A stretch of DNA of 64,000 nt, taken from Fibrobacterota bacterium. GTDB taxonomy: Bacteria > Fibrobacterota > Chitinivibrionia > Chitinivibrionales > FEN-1185. Position 1 is the first letter of the stretch, and each line of letters opens with the position of its first letter. A model generated the notes under the pieces. It was not told the origin of the DNA and ran no database searches. It saw only the letters and a list, made by a program, of their open reading frames with translations. Made by a program: the position numbers and the translations under genes. This document shows, piece after piece, positions 10,587 to 45,770 of this stretch. The DNA lies in NCBI GenBank assembly GCA_003165595.1, contig PLWQ01000025.1, forward strand, positions 107,832 through 171,831, in the 5' to 3' direction.

Positions 10587-10789
10587 GTGGTTGCAATGTT
10601 TGCGCCGAAGGAATGAAAGGCAACACCATTTAAGAATTTAAGAGCCACGCCGCAAGAACGCCGCATTTATGCGGCGAAGAGCAGACAACAGAACTTCATT
10701 GTGCTCACATAGTTATTATCAAGCACGCTCCGCTACGGAATAATTGACCGATCCGCCCCGACACGACCGTGCAATTCGCCGCAATTGAA

Positions 10790-10815: not shown

Positions 10816-10918
10816 GCGCGGGCTGAGGCATTGAAAGACCCCGCAGCAGCTCCGGGGACCGCGATTACAACCGGATGTACACCCCAGTGAGCAGCCTGCA
10901 ATGCGCTCGCGGTGGGAT

Positions 10919-11635: not shown

Positions 11636-12727
11636 TCAGGTTAAATCAATGGTACTCGACGGTTGCGCCGATTGTTTTCTGGTGATGTGCAGAATTGCTT
11701 TTGTCAAATAGGGCCCTGTGAACAAGATGACTAATGCCCGGAAAATCTGGACGGCAAAGATCAACGATACATCGGCTCCGCATCCAAATGCTATGATGGA
11801 AATTGTATCCCCACCTCCCGGACTTGTTGCCAGGTAGCCGGATAGTGGCGAGGCATCAATGAGTCTCGAAAGAACCAAACCAACAAGAGCACAGAAACCT
11901 ATAAGAACCAAGACGTTGGTTATCAATAACGGCAGAAGCCGTCCAGCTTGATTTAGTGATTTTCGGTCGAAGAGAAGACCTACATAAAAACCCATAATGA
12001 TATAGACAAGTGGTGGAACCCATAGGGGCCAGACCGGATGGAATGGATGAAAGATCGAAATCAAAAGTCCAAGGAGCATTGGCCCAAGAAGCGTTGCCGC
12101 GGGTAGCCGAATTAACCGCCCTATCCAAACACCGGCTACTGCCACGAGCGGCATCAGAGCATAGTCATACCAGCCGTGAATTGCAACTGAAGACACCCTA
12201 GGAACATGCTGCCCAACCGTTGATACATGATATGTCAAAAACTTGGCGACAAGAGATGAGATGAGGACTACCAATATCATTCTTAGATATTGCATAAGAC
12301 CAACTATCCTTGTGTCTGCTTTGGTTCCAATGCTCAGCGCTATCATGGCACTCGCCCCGCCAGGCAGGCTACCCATTGCTGCGGTTTCCCGGTTGAGCGA
12401 ACTTATGCGCGGTAAAACCATTGCGGCCACTAAACAGAATGCAATGGTAAAGGATATAACTCCGATAATTGCTGGAAGGTGGAGAAGCAAAAGGGGGAAG
12501 ATATCCGGACGAACATTGATACCAAGCATGGTTCCGATTACAGCCTGGGCACCCATGAGAACTGGTTTATTGACTTGTGGATGAGCCGGCCGAATAAGTC
12601 CCGTAATTACTGCAATGATCATGGCGGCAACGAACCATGATCCGGGGATTGCAAGCCTCTGAGCGCCAAACCCGAGACCCACTGCCAAAGCTCCAACGAT
12701 CACCCACCACAGAATTTTCGATTTCAT
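11636..12727 (-). CDS. AbrB-family (AbrB-duplication / putative ammonia-monooxygenase-like) membrane protein
   Basis: About 10 TM segments with a duplicated signature, 'GSLPGGASAMIALS' and 'LATSPGGGDTISIIA'. Start trimmed to MKSKILWWVIVG (ATG at 12727). Confidence 0.75.
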   Translation of the reverse strand: MKSKILWWVIVGALAVGLGFGAQRLAIPGSWFVAAMIIAVITGLIRPAHPQVNKPVLMGAQAVIGTMLGINVRPDIFPLLLLHLPAIIGVISFTIAFCLVAAMVLPRISSLNRETAAMGSLPGGASAMIALSIGTKADTRIVGLMQYLRMILVVLISSLVAKFLTYHVSTVGQHVPRVSSVAIHGWYDYALMPLVAVAGVWIGRLIRLPAATLLGPMLLGLLISIFHPFHPVWPLWVPPLVYIIMGFYVGLLFDRKSLNQAGRLLPLLITNVLVLIGFCALVGLVLSRLIDASPLSGYLATSPGGGDTISIIAFGCGADVSLIFAVQIFRALVILFTGPYLTKAILHITRKQSAQPSSTIDLT

Positions 12728-12768
12728 GTGTGCGCCTGTTCGGTCAAGCCGTCGAAAAGAGTAAACAA

Positions 12769-12906
12769 CCACGGCCATAGGCCGTGGCCTTATTACACCC
12801 CTGAAAGGGGTGGAAAAAGAAAGGCCGCGCCATCGCGGCGACGTTTAGCATTGCCCCACGGCCCAAGGCCGTGGTCCCCTGCCGGAAACTCCCGAAGGGG
12901 TTTCCG
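12769..12906. repeat. array of five short GC-rich hairpins (REP/BIME-like)
   Basis: H1 12769-12787 CCACGGCC-ATA-GGCCGTGG. H2 12796-12812 CACCCC-TGAAA-GGGGTG. H3 12824-12839 GCCGCG-CCAT-CGCGGC. H4 12856-12874 CCACGGCC-CAA-GGCCGTGG. H5 12883-12906 CGGAAAC(T)CCC-GAA-GGGGTTTCCG. Confidence 0.7.
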
Positions 12907-13054
12907 CTAATCTTCTACGCGGACCATGAATGGCAATTACATCACTAACAGCCGATGTTCGGTTTTCCCTTTGCCGCGATACATCGAGACCTCGGAGCAT
13001 CTCCATTAACCGGCTAGCTAAGTAAGTTGCAGCGCAGGGATCTTGTGTAAATTG

Positions 13055-16000
13055 CTATTTGAGAAACGAGCTGCCGGCGATGCGCATGGCATCCAGAATC
13101 GCCCTGCCGAGACGGTTATACCCGGTCTGGTTGGGATGAAGATAATCGGAAAAATAGACGGAATCCCACGTTGAGTCCGGCAGTTTCGCCAGACTGTCGA
13201 ATGCGTCAACGAGCCACACGCCGCCCTCGCCTCGGCCCAGCCATGTTTGGCGCCGCGCCGTGACCGCCGTATCGAGCATGTGGTTGAAAGCGGGCAGGTT
13301 GGCCTTGAACATTGAATCGGCGCGCACGTTGAAGTCTCCCATGGTGTCGGGCGGGAAAGGTAAAGAGTTCAGGACGTAAATCTCGCCGTGCGGATTTCTC
13401 GCGTGCATCTCGTCGAGGGTTGCCGGGGCATAGTTGTTCAACCCGTAGGGCCAGTAGTACAGCGGGAACTGATATCCTTCGTTGACGCCGCACATATAAA
13501 CCCATATATCCGCGTATGTTGACGAATGGTTCTCCAATGAGTCGTAGATCTGGGCGCTGGTCTTTCCGTTAACTGCGATGCATGAATCGTCGCTGGACGG
13601 AAGGAGCGCGGTTGTGAAAACGGGGCCCTCGCATTTTATCCTCTCGCCAGGCCCGGCCACGGCGCGCAGCGTGTCCACGACCATCCTGCGGAAGCCTCCG
13701 AGTCCCGCGGTGCCGCCGAACCCGGTGACGATGGAATGCCCCACGAAACAGATTCTTCTCTGGAGCATGATGCGCAAGACAGATCCGGCCGCGGCCGTGT
13801 CGTTATGCGTGTCGATAGCCAGGAACCTCCAGTAGTACACGCCGGTGTCCGGCACAGATAATGTGTATGCGGTGTTTGGTCCCTGGTAGACTTGCGCAAG
13901 CGCTGCGGGCGATGTGCCCAGCCACAGCGAAAAGCTGAACGTGTCCGCGACGCCGTCGAGCCTGCTGGCCCCGAGCGATAGCGGAAAGGAATACGGTTTT
14001 GCGTTCAGGGAATTCATGAGAACCGTGTCCATGGGACGCAGCCCCTGGGCGTTCAGATAGCATGGCTTGGCCAGGAACGTAACCGCAAACGTGTCCGCGG
14101 AGACAAGCCCGTCGTTGTCGCGGACGGCCACCACCACACTCTTTCGCGTGTGGATGCTGCTTGTCAACCTAATCGTATCGTGCGCCGAACTGTCGGTCCA
14201 GGCGCCCGTTCCCGCGGCGTTCCACAGGTATTGGACGATTGTCCCGTTTGTGTCGCTTGCCGCAACCGCAAGCGTCAGCGTATCACCCCAGGAAACGGCG
14301 GTGTCGCGGATGGGCCGGACAACGGGCATGCCCAGGCGCACCAGAACAAAGAACGAATCCGGCCGCGATTGGAGCGTGTCGTTGTCGACGGCCTTCACCC
14401 GTACGGTGTGGCGTCCGGTGTCCTGTTTGCTCCACGCCATGCGCACGGACCCCGAGGCGGTCGTATCGGAGTATTGTCCCTTGTCGAAAGACCACAGGTA
14501 CCGGACGACTTCTCCGTTGGTGTCCGAACCCGCGGCATGCAGGGTGACCGAGTCGTTGATGAAGACCGCCGTATCGCTCATGGCCTTGACAAGCGGCGCG
14601 CCCAGCCGCACCAGAACAAAGAACGAATCCGGCCGCGACTGAAGCGTGTCGTCGTCGACGGCCTTCACCCGTACGGTGTGGCGGCCGGTGTCTTGTTTGC
14701 TCCACGCCATGCGCACGGACCCCGGGGCAGTCGTATCGGAGTATTGTCCCTTGTCGAAAGACCACAGGTACCGGACGACGGTTCCGTTGGTGTCGGAGCC
14801 CGCGGCATGCAGGGTGGCCGAGTCGTTGATGAAGACCGCTGTATCGCTCATCGCCTTGACAAGCGGCGTACCCAGCCGCACCAGCACCACGGTGGACTCG
14901 GCGAGAGACACCATGGTGTCGGTGTCCATGGCCTTTACGCGCACCACGTGCCTGCCGGTATCGGCCCTGGAGAAACGCAAGCTCTTGCGGCCGGTTACGG
15001 TTGTGTCCGAGAAAGCCTGGTTGTCCAGCGCCCACATGAACATCGTTGCCGGACTGACGCCGCCGCCCGGCGCCGCCTGCGCAACGAGAGAAAACGTGTC
15101 GTTGATAAAAACGCTTGTGTCGTGCGCCGGGGTCACCACCGGCAGCGGCTTGAGGTGCAGGGTCACGTGCATCGAGTCGGGGCCGGATGCCAGGGTGTCG
15201 TCGTCGATGGCCTTGACATACACAACGATGTTCTTGCCTGTGTCGGCCCTGCCCCAGACGTGGACGATGCTGTCGCCGAGTGTGGTATCGGAGAAATTCG
15301 CCCCGCCGATTGCCCAGACGTATTTCACGACGCGGCCGTTTGTGTCCAGCCCCCGCGCGCGCAGGAGCACAGGATCGTTGACAACTACGACGGTGTCGTG
15401 CGTGATGGATACCGTGGGCGGGTACAGGTGCACGTACACATGCGTGGAATCGACATTCGACGCCAGTCCGTGACTGTCGAGTGCCTTAACAAAAACGACT
15501 CTTTTGCCCGCCTGGGCCCTGGAGAAACTCACGGGAAGGGAAGCGCCGGATGTCGTATCGGAAAAGACCGTTCCGTTCCTGGCCCACAGCCAGCGAACCG
15601 GGGTGGGAAACGTGTCGAGGCGCGTTGCGTGAAGATCCGTGGTGTCGTTGATGGCCGCTGTGGTATCGCGCTGTGCCGCGATGCGGGGATTGTCGACAAC
15701 CACGCGCACCAAAATTGAGTCCGGCGCGGACAAGATGCTGTCGTTGTCCATGGCCGTAACGAGAATCCGATGGGTAAGCGCCTCGGGAGCAAAGCGCCAG
15801 GCCAGAGTCCCTGTTGCGGTTGTGATCGGCGCAGCGCCGGTGTCCACCTTCCAGAAATAGGCTATCACAGTGCCGTTTGAGTCTGCTCCCTGCGCCAGGA
15901 ACTTCACCGTGTCGCCCGGAAAGACGGCGGTATCTCTTGAAACAACGTGAACCGTTGGCGGATTGAGACGAACCGTGATCAAAACGGATTCCGGTTGGGA

Positions 16001-16360
16001 CACGGTGTTCTGCGCGCCGAACGCCTTGACAATAACGATATGGCGGCCGGTGTCCGGTATGCCGAAAATCAACCTGCACAGGCTGTCTGCGGCGGCAGGG
16101 GCCGGGACTTTGCTGCCGTCCAGCGTCCAGCCGAAGGACGCGGCTCTGCCGCCCGCGGCCTCGGTACGGGCGACCAGGACAAGGGAATCCTTGACCGAAA
16201 CCGTGGTATCGGCAATAATTGACAGTACGGGGTCGTGAGGCCGTTTGTCAACCGGGTTGGAGCACCTAAGCGCGAGCACAACGGCGCCGGCAAGAAAAAT
16301 GGCCGGGACGAGGCGAATCGGAAAGGTACTTCTTTTGGTGCAACGATCGTACATCTTCAT
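13055..16360 (-). CDS. large secreted protein: about 8 tandem PKD/Ig-like repeats plus a C-terminal SGNH/GDSL hydrolase domain
   Basis: N-terminal hydrophobic signal. About 90-aa repeats with 'D.NG.VV.Y.W...G..FSDTT....(F)SR.D.G+..V.VKA.D.D'. C-terminal 'ICFVGHSIVTGFGG' (block I) and 'DYLHPNQTGYNRLG' (block V, DxxH). Confidence 0.85.
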   Translation of the reverse strand: MKMYDRCTKRSTFPIRLVPAIFLAGAVVLALRCSNPVDKRPHDPVLSIIADTTVSVKDSLVLVARTEAAGGRAASFGWTLDGSKVPAPAAADSLCRLIFGIPDTGRHIVIVKAFGAQNTVSQPESVLITVRLNPPTVHVVSRDTAVFPGDTVKFLAQGADSNGTVIAYFWKVDTGAAPITTATGTLAWRFAPEALTHRILVTAMDNDSILSAPDSILVRVVVDNPRIAAQRDTTAAINDTTDLHATRLDTFPTPVRWLWARNGTVFSDTTSGASLPVSFSRAQAGKRVVFVKALDSHGLASNVDSTHVYVHLYPPTVSITHDTVVVVNDPVLLRARGLDTNGRVVKYVWAIGGANFSDTTLGDSIVHVWGRADTGKNIVVYVKAIDDDTLASGPDSMHVTLHLKPLPVVTPAHDTSVFINDTFSLVAQAAPGGGVSPATMFMWALDNQAFSDTTVTGRKSLRFSRADTGRHVVRVKAMDTDTMVSLAESTVVLVRLGTPLVKAMSDTAVFINDSATLHAAGSDTNGTVVRYLWSFDKGQYSDTTAPGSVRMAWSKQDTGRHTVRVKAVDDDTLQSRPDSFFVLVRLGAPLVKAMSDTAVFINDSVTLHAAGSDTNGEVVRYLWSFDKGQYSDTTASGSVRMAWSKQDTGRHTVRVKAVDNDTLQSRPDSFFVLVRLGMPVVRPIRDTAVSWGDTLTLAVAASDTNGTIVQYLWNAAGTGAWTDSSAHDTIRLTSSIHTRKSVVVAVRDNDGLVSADTFAVTFLAKPCYLNAQGLRPMDTVLMNSLNAKPYSFPLSLGASRLDGVADTFSFSLWLGTSPAALAQVYQGPNTAYTLSVPDTGVYYWRFLAIDTHNDTAAAGSVLRIMLQRRICFVGHSIVTGFGGTAGLGGFRRMVVDTLRAVAGPGERIKCEGPVFTTALLPSSDDSCIAVNGKTSAQIYDSLENHSSTYADIWVYMCGVNEGYQFPLYYWPYGLNNYAPATLDEMHARNPHGEIYVLNSLPFPPDTMGDFNVRADSMFKANLPAFNHMLDTAVTARRQTWLGRGEGGVWLVDAFDSLAKLPDSTWDSVYFSDYLHPNQTGYNRLGRAILDAMRIAGSSFLK
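14341..14880. repeat. two nearly identical 270-bp tandem copies inside the PKD-repeat gene
   Basis: 14341-14610 and 14611-14880 align base-for-base with about 17 substitutions by my manual comparison. They encode two 90-aa repeats, 'LVKAMSDTAVFINDS.TLHAAGSDTNG.VVRYLWSFDKGQYSDTTA.GSVRMAWSKQDTGRHTVRVKAVD.DTLQSRPDSFFVLVRLG'. Confidence 0.9.
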
Positions 16361-29719: not shown

Positions 29720-29895
29720 ATGCATGGATGTGAGAGATGGTTGATGAGTTGATGGGTTGACTTGCCGTCGTGCGGATGCGTACGCTCGGCGCTCTGGAAT
29801 AATTCGTGGCGGACTTTCAATCTCTACCTAGAGGTCTTTGTCCACTACTTGCAACGTTGTCGGTTCTCTTGATTTTTGCGTTAGGGGCGACTGCA

Positions 29896-30034
29896 AGCCC
29901 GCCGGAGCGGGTTGCCGGCCGACCCTCGCCGAAGGCGACCAGGGCGGACCGGCAACGAGGCTTCAGCCGAGCTGGAGCCGGAGCGCCGGAGGCGCGGAGA
30001 CCACCGCCGCAGGCGGCCCGAAGGGCGCGAAGCG
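29896..30034. repeat. array of GC-rich tri/tetraloop mini-hairpins between convergent genes
   Basis: 29896-29913 AGCCCGC-CGGA-GCGGGTT. 29912-29955 is a long imperfect hairpin TTGCCGG...TCGCC-GAA-GGCGA...CCGGCAA. 29959-29979 GGCTTCAGC-CGA-GCTGGAGCC. 29983-29995 GCGCC-GGA-GGCGC. 30004-30016 CCGCC-GCA-GGCGG. 30016-30026 GCCC-GAA-GGGC. Confidence 0.65.
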
Positions 30035-30082
30035 TGAACGAGAACCGACCCGAGCGCAGCGAGGGGAACGCCCATTTTATCT

Positions 30083-43664: not shown

Positions 43665-45770
43665 GTGGGATTCATCGTGGATGACTCGCAATTGTCACAA
43701 CACAAAACGGCCGTTCGCGGGCGATTTCACGATGTGCGGCCCGGCCTCTTTGCGCGCGCGGGAAATCGGATCGATCGCCTTTGCAGGCATGTCAATGAAG
43801 ACCATTTGATTGTTTTTGACAAAAGAAGCGTCTTGTTCATAACGGCGCTCTTAGCCCTTTTCGCTGCTGCAGTTGTTTCCAAAATCCATTATTCCTCCAT
43901 TCCCGTCTGGGACAGCATTCTCTCCGAGCGTGCTTCCGGCGCAACCGCGTCACGCGTGCTGTGGGGAACGCCCAAGGTCATACGGATAGACGAATGGCGC
44001 GGCGATACCCCGTTTATCCTTTCGCAGGCTGCACGGCATTTTCCAACGATAAATTATTCTCTTGGTCCAGAAAAGATTCCAGTGCTCATGGGGCTGCCAT
44101 CCAAGCATTTTTCGGCGTTGTTTCAGCCGCAAAACTGGGGCTTTTTCGTTTTGGGCCTCGAAAGAGGGTTTTCCTTTTTCTGGAATTACGGCGTGGCCTC
44201 AATCCTGCTGAGCTCGTTTCTGCTGTTCATGCTCGTGTCGAGAAACAGGTTCTGGTTGTCGGTCTTCGGAACGTTGTTCCTGTTCTTTTCGAGTTTTGTC
44301 CAGTGGTGGTTCTTTGCTTCAACGGGAGCCATGTTCGCGGCATTCAATGTCATCACAATCGCATTCGTCTATCTGGCATCATCAAAAAGACGATTAACGA
44401 TCATGTGCGGCGCAGGAGTCCTGTTCTTCTTTGCCGTGGCATTCGCCCTGTCGCTGTATCCGCCGTTTGTGATACCGCTGGGATTGCTTTCGGCTGCCTG
44501 TTGCATCGGCTACCTGTTGCAGTACTGCGCGTGGAACGATGTGAAGAAGAATCTGGTGATGCGCGCAGTTGCAGGCGTTTGTTGCCTGGTGTGCTTAGCC
44601 GTTTTTGCAATCGTGTTCTACCGTGATCTGCAATCGTCTATTTCGCTTACCATGAATTCCGTGTATCCGGGAAAAAGAATTTCCACGGGCGGAGACTTCG
44701 GCGTTGCCCGGCTGTTTTCCGGGTTCTACGGACTATTCTTTACCGAGAAACGTTTCTTGTGGGGAAACATTTGCGAAAGCAGCAGTTTTGTGATGCTCTA
44801 TCCCTTTGTCGTTGCGGCGGTATTGTGGCGCGCCGTAAAGGGAAAACCGCAACCGCTGCAAATTGCGCTGTCGATATACCTGCTGATTCTTTCTGTTTTT
44901 GTCCTGTTTGGATTCCCCGCGTTTTTATCACGATATACGCTCATGAGTTTTGTTCCCTCGTATCGTGCCATTATCGGGCTGGGTGTGGGGAATATTCTCC
45001 TTGTCGTTGTTTACCTGAGCTCGGCAGGCGAGAAGCCGAAGTTTGCCCCGGCGCGGTCGATGGCGCTGTTTGTGGTGCTGCTTGCGTGCTTGCTTGCGCA
45101 TGGGCTGTATCTTGGTTTTGTGTCAAATCACTTTTTCCAGCCATGGCAAATCTCTGCGGTTTGCGTCTTTTTCTCCTTCGCGGTGTGGTTGCTGTTGAGC
45201 GGAAGGAAAACCGTCTTCTGTTTCATGATACTGGCCGTCGTACTGCCTTCAACGTATTCCGTGCTTCCCGTGTCAAGGGGGTTGGGTTTTATAGTTGACA
45301 AAAAGCTCTATCGCTCCGTCAAGGAAGTCGTTGCAGGAGATCCGCAGGGGAAATGGCTGGTTTTCGGCAGCGGCGTACTCGGGGAATTGGTAACCGCTAC
45401 CGGCGCGCTTGTCGTCAATGGAACAAAATATTGCCCGGACTTTTCCGCGATGCACATCCTTGATCCTTCCGGCCACGGTAACGCAATATACAATAGATTT
45501 GCTCATATCTACGTTGTGCCCTGCAGAGACACGACGATCGTGGATTTCAGGTTGGTGTATGAAGATGCTTATGAGATTGTAATGAGCCCTCTGTCGGGTA
45601 AGGTAAGGGATTTGCATGTAAAGTATCTGCTTGTGCCGAACGATTCAACGTGTTACAATGTTGAAGAAGGAAAAAGCAAAGGCGTTATTCCTCGTGTAGA
45701 CAGGCCGATAGATAATTTCTGGATATTGGAAATTACGGATAAAGCCACGGCCAAACGTCCGGCTTCCTGA
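43665..45770 (+). CDS. uncharacterised polytopic membrane protein with soluble C-terminal domain (GT-C candidate)
   Basis: About 14 hydrophobic segments. 'KVIRIDEWRGDTPFIL' acidic loop after TM1. The start is uncertain: GTG 43665 as in the track, or in-frame TTG 43806 just before TM1. Confidence 0.6.
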   Translation: MGFIVDDSQLSQHKTAVRGRFHDVRPGLFARAGNRIDRLCRHVNEDHLIVFDKRSVLFITALLALFAAAVVSKIHYSSIPVWDSILSERASGATASRVLWGTPKVIRIDEWRGDTPFILSQAARHFPTINYSLGPEKIPVLMGLPSKHFSALFQPQNWGFFVLGLERGFSFFWNYGVASILLSSFLLFMLVSRNRFWLSVFGTLFLFFSSFVQWWFFASTGAMFAAFNVITIAFVYLASSKRRLTIMCGAGVLFFFAVAFALSLYPPFVIPLGLLSAACCIGYLLQYCAWNDVKKNLVMRAVAGVCCLVCLAVFAIVFYRDLQSSISLTMNSVYPGKRISTGGDFGVARLFSGFYGLFFTEKRFLWGNICESSSFVMLYPFVVAAVLWRAVKGKPQPLQIALSIYLLILSVFVLFGFPAFLSRYTLMSFVPSYRAIIGLGVGNILLVVVYLSSAGEKPKFAPARSMALFVVLLACLLAHGLYLGFVSNHFFQPWQISAVCVFFSFAVWLLLSGRKTVFCFMILAVVLPSTYSVLPVSRGLGFIVDKKLYRSVKEVVAGDPQGKWLVFGSGVLGELVTATGALVVNGTKYCPDFSAMHILDPSGHGNAIYNRFAHIYVVPCRDTTIVDFRLVYEDAYEIVMSPLSGKVRDLHVKYLLVPNDSTCYNVEEGKSKGVIPRVDRPIDNFWILEITDKATAKRPAS

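Follow-up and report, generated by a model that had tools for sequence, protein, structure and literature searches.

Which kind of sequence places five closely spaced GC-rich hairpins in a single intergenic spacer of an uncultured bacterium? The question is raised by positions 12769–12906 of the window, the 64,000-nt stretch analysed here (Fibrobacterota bacterium assembly GCA_003165595.1, contig PLWQ01000025.1, positions 107,832–171,831 of the forward strand). The hairpins lie in a 327-nt spacer (12728–13054), with the stop codon of a PKD/SGNH gene on one side and the ATG (12727) of an AbrB-family gene on the other. The original prediction had interpreted them, together with further units about 30 kb away, as repetitive extragenic palindromic (REP) elements clustered into bacterial interspersed mosaic elements (BIMEs). 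The evidence below makes it very probable that the two loci are copies of a non-autonomous miniature IS200-type transposon (IS200/IS605 family), of the kind known as palindrome-associated transposable elements (PATEs). The family itself is previously undescribed; the kind of mobile DNA is already known and represents no new class of system.

Hairpin census and definition of the repeat family

The coordinates and sequences of the five hairpins were re-read, and all agreed with those given originally. The stem pattern CCACGSCC-N3-GGSCGTGG was found four times in the window (at 12769, 12856, 42883 and 43036), always in intergenic DNA, against no match in 100 dinucleotide-preserving shuffles, bearing out the predicted enrichment and intergenic bias. 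No further copy was present in an extra 16 kb of the same genome. Perfect stems of at least 8 bp occurred at ~1 per kb in non-coding DNA and at ~0.03 per kb in coding DNA, a ~35-fold difference in density. A DNA-uptake or Chi-like oligomer was rejected, the 8-mer CCACGGCC/GGCCGTGG occurring alone only five times outside hairpins and not being over-represented. A larger duplicated segment common to the two spacers was also rejected, as plain local alignment gave only 32 nt; the kinship of the two loci emerged only through other members of the family.

These members were retrieved from metagenomes with a pattern of the hairpin plus its tail, CCACGGCCNNNGGCCGTGGTTNTTNAC, which gave 67 stretches with 69 pattern matches, most from one sample series and on contigs of 39–62 % G+C (collected sequences are cited below by L number). 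The copies are dispersed, with unrelated flanks that diverge at the element boundaries. Orthology to the window is limited to L185 and a part of L175, and the other stretches match the element alone. The occurrence of copies in unrelated genomes suggests horizontal spread rather than strictly vertical inheritance. The family consists of long conserved units in two subfamilies, each matching one window locus: type 1 corresponds to 12761–12929 (element 1), and type 2 occurs in a short form of ~172 nt and a long form of ~238 nt, the latter corresponding to 42875–43110 (element 2).

A covariance model, R1, was built from an RNAalifold alignment of 16 short type-2 metagenomic copies and contained no window sequence. 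It matched element 1 at 12760–12931 on the minus strand (82.9 bits, E = 5e-19) and element 2 at 42874–43112 on the minus strand (177.6 bits, E = 6.6e-43), in both cases over the full model length. Because both matches are full length, the five hairpins form one element and the two distant hairpins the ends of another. The covariance-model check proposed with the original prediction thus recovers both window elements. The sequences reported at 42883–42901 and 43036–43054 stand as described, and what falls is their status as separate units. Outside the two elements there was no R1 match in the window, its extensions or L004–L007 (158 kb), apart from weak shadow matches on the opposite strand of these two. 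Across 462 kb of metagenome contigs, R1 gave 86 matches at E ≤ 1e-3, a number that includes some opposite-strand duplicates of the same loci. The five hairpins of element 1 comprise four different sequences in a fixed order, and this order recurs as one unit elsewhere. Only chance open reading frames (ORFs) overlap the 169- and 236-nt elements.

Two further features of the retrieved copies were observed. Minimal forms of 87 nt (L152, L154, L172 171–304 and L198 9702–9774) retain the 5′ domain, a single hairpin and the right-end tail, and look as if recombination between the two identical hairpins had deleted the intervening segment. Many assembly contigs also begin or end inside repeats or a few bases from them, both where they match the window (L003 and L137, at window positions 12862, 10881, 42907 and 30045) and elsewhere (L145, L149, L166, L168, L182, L183 and L202). 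This suggests that the repeats break short-read assemblies, which would imply a high copy number or strain heterogeneity.

Insertion sites and evidence of mobility

Empty insertion sites were sought by comparing the joined flanks of each copy with all collected sequences, and three were found. For element 1, the comparison was with L004 and L005, which carry AbrB orthologues at 91 % and 85 % identity respectively. Their empty site reads ...GATGTAATTGCCAT|TCTTTTCGACGGCTTGAC..., and the filled site in the window reads ...ATTGCCAT[TCATGG...TTGTTTAC]TCTTTTCG..., with the junction ATTGCCAT|TCTTTTCG. The empty site belongs to the 3′ end of tetR, which in these relatives overlaps the start of the AbrB-family gene; in the window only the last ~35 codons of tetR remain, split by element 1. 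The AbrB-family gene is not syntenic in L004–L007.

The second site is given by a pair of metagenome contigs with 95 % identical flanks, of which L162 is filled, CTGTGAT[TTTGTGC...TTCTTTAC]CCGGCTC, and L156 is empty, CTGTGAT|CCGGCTC. Here the junction is unambiguous and no target duplication is present. At the third, L175 reads uninterrupted CCTTCAT|TGCCTCC where element 2 follows CCTTCAT in the window. A separate copy stands in L175 52 nt beyond this point, preceded by TTTTCAT, and the window has TTTTCAC there. Separate insertions at neighbouring TTCAT sites of related genomes point to recent activity.

All three insertions are precise, lie directly 3′ of a pentanucleotide (GCCAT, GTGAT and TTCAT) and lack target duplication. 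Across 43 copies the target logo was T-T-B-A-T, with T at −5 in 29 and at −4 in 34, A at −3 in only 3, and nearly invariant A-T at −2/−1. In L153, one element is inserted inside the TTCAT formed at the left junction of another. Judged from crude ORF maps, the copies face both ways about equally often with respect to neighbouring ORFs, as expected for mobile insertions.

Conserved structure and covariation

The RNAalifold consensus of the 16 short type-2 copies contains seven helices. In the 5′ part, a long-range helix TTGTGCA/TGCACAA closes the 5′ domain and is stacked on the left hairpin, and a small GCC/GGC helix is also present; the remainder comprises the left hairpin itself, AAGCAC/GTGCTT, CTTTGAT/ATCAAAG around GGGG/CCCC, and the right hairpin. 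On the minus strand the element therefore reads as a 5′ domain, a left hairpin stacked on the long-range helix, two internal hairpins, a right hairpin with the same stem as the left, and an 8-nt tail. As single-stranded DNA, elements 1 and 2 had folding z-scores of −5.9 and −4.5 against shuffles.

In an alignment of 47 copies, 97.5 % of the model-helix cells were paired, compared with 86.8 % in shuffled controls, and 25 of the 44 pairs in the seven helices had changes on both sides. Cells with a double change numbered 162 against 31 in shuffles, none of the 500 shuffles reaching the observed value, and 17–27 in slid controls; these counts come from an alignment fitted to the model and from copies that are related to one another. 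They sustain the claim of selection on base pairing, which had first been made from a single compensatory variant at 43036. That variant, too, is upheld, since the pair concerned (columns 67/80) is C-G in 35 of the 47 members, G-C in 11 and unpaired in none. Covariation was found in every helix save the right hairpin, which the search pattern had fixed. Changes on both sides affected five of the seven pairs of P3 (family helix 4), and compensatory change affected all four pairs of P4 (family helix 6). P1 (family helix 1) also covaries, being TTGTGCA/TGCACAA in type 2, CATTGCC/GGCAATG in type 1 and CTGTGC/GCACAG in L189. Among mispairs, G·T (23) and A·C (17) gave no indication of which strand folds, nor of RNA rather than DNA.

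Anatomy of the two window elements

Element 1 belongs to type 1 and is a miniature IS200/IS605-family element 169 nt long; it occupies 12761–12929 on the minus strand (5′-TCATGGTCC...GGCCGTGGTTGTTTAC-3′), on which all its features are given. The target pentanucleotide GCCAT lies directly 5′ of it at 12930–12934, as placed by the empty-site comparison with L004 and L005. The left end (12922–12929) starts with T (12929) and continues as the P1 5′ strand CATGGTC, which pairs (12922–12928) with the 3′ strand GGCAATG at 12849–12855; this copy of the long-range helix has one mismatch and one wobble. The five hairpins, numbered 1 to 5 in plus-strand order, follow from 5 to 1. Hairpin 5 (12883–12906) is the 5′-domain hairpin, CGGAAAC-CCCTTCGGGA-GTTTCCG (CGGAAAC-TCCCGAAGGG-GTTTCCG on the plus strand), and is kept in the type-1 copies L151, L171, L196 and L199. 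Hairpin 4 (12856–12874) is the left-end hairpin P2, CCACGGCC-TTG-GGCCGTGG, with the plus-strand loop CAA. Hairpins 3 and 2 are the internal hairpins P3 (12824–12839, GCCGCG-ATGG-CGCGGC, plus-strand loop CCAT) and P4 (12796–12812, CACCCCT-TTC-AGGGGTG, plus-strand loop GAA). Hairpin 1 (12769–12787) is the right-end subterminal hairpin P5, CCACGGCC-TAT-GGCCGTGG, with the plus-strand loop ATA.

The right-end tail, TTGTTTAC, spans 12761–12768 with the boundary after its C, and flanks diverge directly after it. In the family the 8-nt tail is TT[C/G]TTYAC, and in the copies it is conserved as TT[C/G]TTTAC, partly by construction, as the retrieval pattern required TTNTTNAC; for this reason the right boundary rests on the empty sites.

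Element 2, the type-2 long form, measures 236 nt (42875–43110, minus strand, 5′-TTTGTGCAGCG...GGCCGTGGTTCTTCAC-3′), its boundaries being taken from the empty site in L175 and from the L162/L156 pair. Its target pentanucleotide TTCAT (43111–43115) is two bases past the stop codon of a DUF4177-like gene (43118–43390), both likewise on the minus strand. The left end (43103–43110) consists of a first base T at 43110 and the P1 5′ strand TTGTGCA, which pairs with 43029–43035. The left-end hairpin P2 (43036–43054), CCACGCCC-TTT-GGGCGTGG, is the compensatory variant described above. P3 (43002–43019) is AAAGCAC-TTAC-GTGCTTT and covaries with AAGCGC/GCGCTT in other copies. The P4 domain (42902–43000) is a CTTTGAT/ATCAAAG stem around GGGG...CCCC, the loop of which holds an additional ~69-nt module. 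The right-end hairpin CCACGGCC-GAT-GGCCGTGG (42883–42901) and the tail TTCTTCAC (42875–42882) complete the element.

The ~69-nt module is an insertion relative to R1, and its presence defines the long form. The same module (~42912–42990; ...GTAAGGGTTTGGCAGTGGTGC...ATTATGTCGTTTGCCCTTT) was observed inside the 5′ domain of some type-1 copies (L146, L194, L201, L171 and L199), and it seems to be a movable sub-module that occupies two different sites in the element.

Transposase-bearing relatives

A scan of species-representative genomes with the hairpin gave, among the matches listed, mostly chance single ones in GC-rich taxa, and several matches from unrelated phyla had flanks in common besides the hairpin. 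Y1 transposase genes adjoin the hairpin in L010 (Pfam Y1_Tnp, E = 1.4e-36) and, by phmmer, in L072, L016 and L084. The L072 element reads taaaa-CCACGGCC-tct-GGCCGTGG, tnpA, two GGCCCC/GGGGCC hairpins and again taaaa-CCACGGCC-tct-GGCCGTGG, the end hairpins being in direct orientation and bracketing a tnpA-only element. In L167 and L173, tnpA is followed by one or two hairpins and then by CCACGGCC-TWT-GGCCGTGG-TTGTTTAC. IS200-like elements of L072, L008 and L167 have the P2-type hairpin as their left end.

The proteins of L010, L072, L167 and L173 scored 119–148 bits against NF033573 (transpos_IS200, NCBIfam; cut-off 55). Against NF047646 (REP_Tyr_transpos; cut-off 80) three of these four Y1 proteins scored 22–31 bits and that of L167 gave no match. 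Hairpins 3, 2 and 1 on the minus strand of the window match the order and spacing of the three right-end hairpins of the IS200-like elements, P4 being colinear with their H2, and the tail after hairpin 1 fits the IS200-like pattern T-Y-S-N-T-N-A-N-T.

Several observations weigh against assigning the two loci to the IS200-type elements. Consistent with the original statement that the window lacks a RAYT/TnpA-REP gene, phmmer found no Y1 ORF in the window or in 16 kb of flanks (80 kb in total), which leaves current mobility in the source genome a presumption. The 5′ domain, some 55–70 nt ahead of the left hairpin, is without counterpart in the recovered autonomous elements, and the left ends of L072 and L167 lie only ~16–20 nt before the hairpin. 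A profile built from sequence alone on the inner right-end hairpins of IS200 elements of planctomycetes and acidobacteria was not significant in the window, and homology of the inner part to these distant copies thus rests on architecture. The terminal 27 nt of L167 and L173 match partly by construction, as the search pattern required them. Finally, seven helices with conserved linkers exceed what recognition by TnpA is known to need.

Four features near these hairpin copies were observed incidentally. The IS200-like element at L167 3600–4290 has the same 19-nt sequence, TCCAACGCCGATAAATACT, on both flanks, which is unexpected for a family that inserts without duplication. A group II intron domain lies beside the IS200 copy in L084 (472–590), and a group I intron lies ~200 nt from hairpin copies in L050 (6879–7243). 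L031 (1491–7601), from a Planctomycetaceae metagenome-assembled genome (MAG), contains four irregularly spaced 35-nt units, CTTCAATGCGG-CCACGGCC-tcg-GGCCGTGG-AGAAC, apparently inside long open frames; they seem to belong to another repeat family that shares the hairpin core.

Proposed mechanism

By analogy with the 'peel and paste' transposition of IS608 and ISDra2, a TnpA (Y1 HUH) enzyme encoded elsewhere in the genome would act in trans, binding both subterminal hairpins on single-stranded DNA. Cleavage would occur at the junction of target and left end and again after the right-end tail, so that the element would be released as a single-stranded circle, which could then be pasted 3′ of another target pentanucleotide. 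In sequence, the right-end hairpin and T-rich tail resemble an intrinsic terminator that would act on the strand carrying the flanking genes. Since element 1 lies only 33 nt upstream of the AbrB-family start codon, it may be polar on that gene and affect its expression.

Alternative explanations

The alternative that survives best, which we regard as improbable, is a structured non-coding RNA family, either a scaffold similar to the omega-RNA guides of TnpB/IscB acting in trans or a regulatory small RNA borne by the transposon; it is compatible with mobility. We likewise see only a small chance that the seven-helix architecture, with its conserved linkers and 5′ domain, specifies a functional RNA, perhaps a guide-like scaffold or a regulatory small RNA linked to tnpA-only IS200 elements and spread between distant bacteria by the transposon; no such guide RNA is known from the tnpA-only IS200 group. 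An RNA would account for seven covarying helices, one of them long-range, for unpaired linkers that are highly conserved across contigs of 39–62 % G+C, and for an element end in which a hairpin and T-rich tail resemble an intrinsic terminator. PATEs elsewhere, moreover, often carry omega-RNAs (PMC10055086). Against this, no Rfam family matched at gathering thresholds or with a meaningful permissive E-value, and G·T mispairs were no commoner than A·C, giving no sign of RNA-strand folding. The recovered autonomous relatives carry tnpA only, and a TnpB-type C-terminal zinc ribbon was absent from all 121 ORFs of 300–560 aa in the 462 kb around the copies. No TnpB or IscB was among the best 25 of 189 matched Pfam families, which include every family matched by at least two ORFs (such multiply matched families being housekeeping ones), although a lower-ranked single match is possible. 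A conserved upstream promoter is also lacking, since the flanks diverge at the element boundary.

Under a REP/BIME reading, each 19-nt hairpin would be an independent REP clustered with others; a REP-associated tyrosine transposase (RAYT), itself single-copy, would multiply these units, and they would serve as mRNA stabilisers, terminators or protein-binding sites. In REP classes the palindrome is headed by a conserved GTAG/CTAC tetranucleotide, and a BIME is a mosaic of palindromic units in alternating orientation with defined linker motifs between them. We consider this reading very unlikely for the window. The hairpins are indeed short, GC-rich, strictly intergenic and recurrent, RAYTs are relatives of IS200 TnpA among the Y1 HUH enzymes, and three of the four Y1 proteins gave weak, sub-threshold matches to the RAYT model. 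In the window, however, the hairpin is never solitary and always lies within a 169–236-nt element with defined ends. The two hairpins of each element are direct, as seen from their loops, their tails and the alignment of the model on one strand, rather than inverted as in REPINs (PMC3337134). No GTAG or CTAC occurs in the flanks of the four hairpins, and no RAYT was found in the 80 kb. The partner transposases lie above the IS200 cut-off and below that for RAYTs, and their genes are bracketed by hairpins in the fashion of an insertion sequence (IS). Insertion is, furthermore, site-specific, 3′ of a pentanucleotide and without duplication. A BIME mosaic was rejected on the arrangement of element 1, in which four different hairpin sequences stand in a fixed recurring order rather than as units of alternating orientation. 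What endures of the original interpretation is a dispersed intergenic family with selected base pairing and a link to HUH/Y1 enzymes; the 19-nt REP unit, the BIME clustering and the RAYT family do not.

Tandem intrinsic terminators or protective 3′-end hairpins that arose in situ behind the PKD/SGNH and DUF4177-like genes can be set aside almost entirely. Both loci do lie downstream of minus-strand genes, and three hairpins (12789–12767, 12839–12824 and 43019–43002, all minus strand) match a terminator-like hairpin with a T-tract. Against such an origin, L004, L005 and L175 share the flanking sequence without the element, the 170–240-nt sequence is present in dozens of different, unrelated surroundings and faces either way with respect to the genes nearby, and element 1 splits a tetR remnant instead of standing behind a complete gene. 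A consensus scan gave eight terminator-like sites over the region against 9.7 expected from shuffles. A secondary terminator effect of the elements is possible, even with an in-place terminator origin refuted. Three further candidates were set aside on anatomy alone: a CRISPR array by the irregular spacing and differing hairpins, integron attC sites by the lack of R″/R′ core sites, and a riboswitch or leader of the AbrB-family gene by the absence of the element in relatives.

Neighbouring genes and other repeats of the window

The AbrB-family membrane gene has a public call of 380 aa (11636–12778, minus strand), whose start is the ATG at 12776–12778 in the loop of the right-end hairpin. As the homologues are all of 363 aa, the true start is most likely the ATG at 12727, and the misplaced call was probably caused by the transposon insertion. 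The nearest named homologue of the protein, at 73 % identity, is from a MAG labelled Chitinivibrionales, and several metagenome contigs match the window at 100 % identity.

The tetR remnant is a 5′-truncated pseudogene on the minus strand (12930–13032 plus 12728–12760), the translation of which (...ATYLASRLMEMLRGLDVSRQRENRTSAVSDVIA) matches the TetR C-terminus of L004 and L005; the rest of tetR is replaced in the window by the PKD/SGNH (PKD/GDSL-lipase) gene, which encodes 1101 aa (13055–16360, minus strand). Within this gene, at 14318–14884, two overlapping 297-nt segments offset by 270 nt are 92.6 % identical and reflect recently duplicated PKD-like domains.

Other spacers had been listed originally as carrying similar hairpins (10659–10676, 10839–10857, 29896–30034 and 43633–43652). 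The hairpins are present, and their membership of the same family is not borne out, as R1 does not match them. Three of the spacers hold different dispersed repeats (10830–10916, 29873–30074 and 43576–43674) that are common to the same metagenome contigs, from which it follows that the genome carries several small repeat families. The repeat at 29873–30074 lies in a convergent spacer and comprises about seven short GC-rich hairpins, many with G-N-A triloops on the plus strand (cGAAg, cGGAg and cGCAg, including GCGAAGC). Its core, TTGCCGGCCGACCC...GGGCGGACCGGCAACGAGG, was found at 74–84 % identity in L201, L159, L174, L163, L190, L162 and L156, and it is a different dispersed repeat family. The repeats at 10830–10916 and 43576–43674 each contain a CCCCG-loop-CGGGG hairpin and share the 3′ end GCGCTCGCnGTGGGATTCA; repeats of these types stand side by side in L151, beside a type-1 element.

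Elsewhere in the window, the spacers flanking N_methyl (pilin-like) genes at 39480–39584 and 40017–40374 have a 34-nt stretch in common at 94 % identity. The most over-represented 8-mer, CTTGACAA/TTGTCAAG, occurs 17 times, ~10 times the expectation from composition; it contains TTGACA and may represent promoter −35 context.

Comparison with known systems

A conspicuous cluster of hairpins in an uncultured Fibrobacterota-like lineage is thus explained by a single mobile insertion, for which exact ends, a target motif and a structure model are available. R1 can be used for masking and annotating these repeats, which coincide with contig breaks in several assemblies and create spurious start codons.

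The family shares with the REP, REPIN and BIME systems (PMC3116915, PMC3337134) the short GC-rich intergenic palindromes, the non-autonomous state and the reliance on a Y1 HUH enzyme that acts on hairpins. A REPIN consists of two inverted REPs mobilised by a RAYT (PMC3337134, PMC3116915). In the window family, by contrast, the hairpin pairs are direct, the unit is long and structured, the GTAG head is missing and the partner enzyme is an IS200 TnpA.

The IS200 group (tnpA only), with IS200 of Salmonella and IS1541 of Yersinia, resembles the family in that CCACGSCC-N3-GGSCGTGG ends IS200-like elements in L072, L010, L167 and L173. ISDra2 has the target TTGAT, and the right-end cut of IS608 falls ~10 nt past the hairpin. 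The target pentanucleotide of the window family resembles the former, and its right-end cut, 8 nt past the hairpin, is similar to the latter. The window copies differ from the IS200 group in being without a transposase gene and in having a left end 55–70 nt upstream of the hairpin rather than ~20 nt.

PATEs are ends-only, non-autonomous derivatives of IS200/IS605 elements that are moved in trans (PMC7290912, PMC10055086, PMC3119063), and have been described in Haloquadratum (PMC3119063), Halanaerobium (PMC7290912) and Geobacillus (PMC10055086). The present family differs from them in having a parent of the IS200 type, with tnpA only, rather than of the IS605/IS1341 type with tnpB; in its own 5′ domain closed by a long-range helix, with no link to omega-RNA or TnpB found; and in its host, which is uncultured and Chitinivibrionales-like, with copies on contigs of widely different G+C content. 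It resembles them in its lack of an ORF, its short length (169–236 nt here), subterminal hairpins in place of terminal inverted repeats, a right end common to tnpA-bearing elements, many dispersed copies, presumed mobilisation in trans and precise insertion 3′ of a short motif without duplication.

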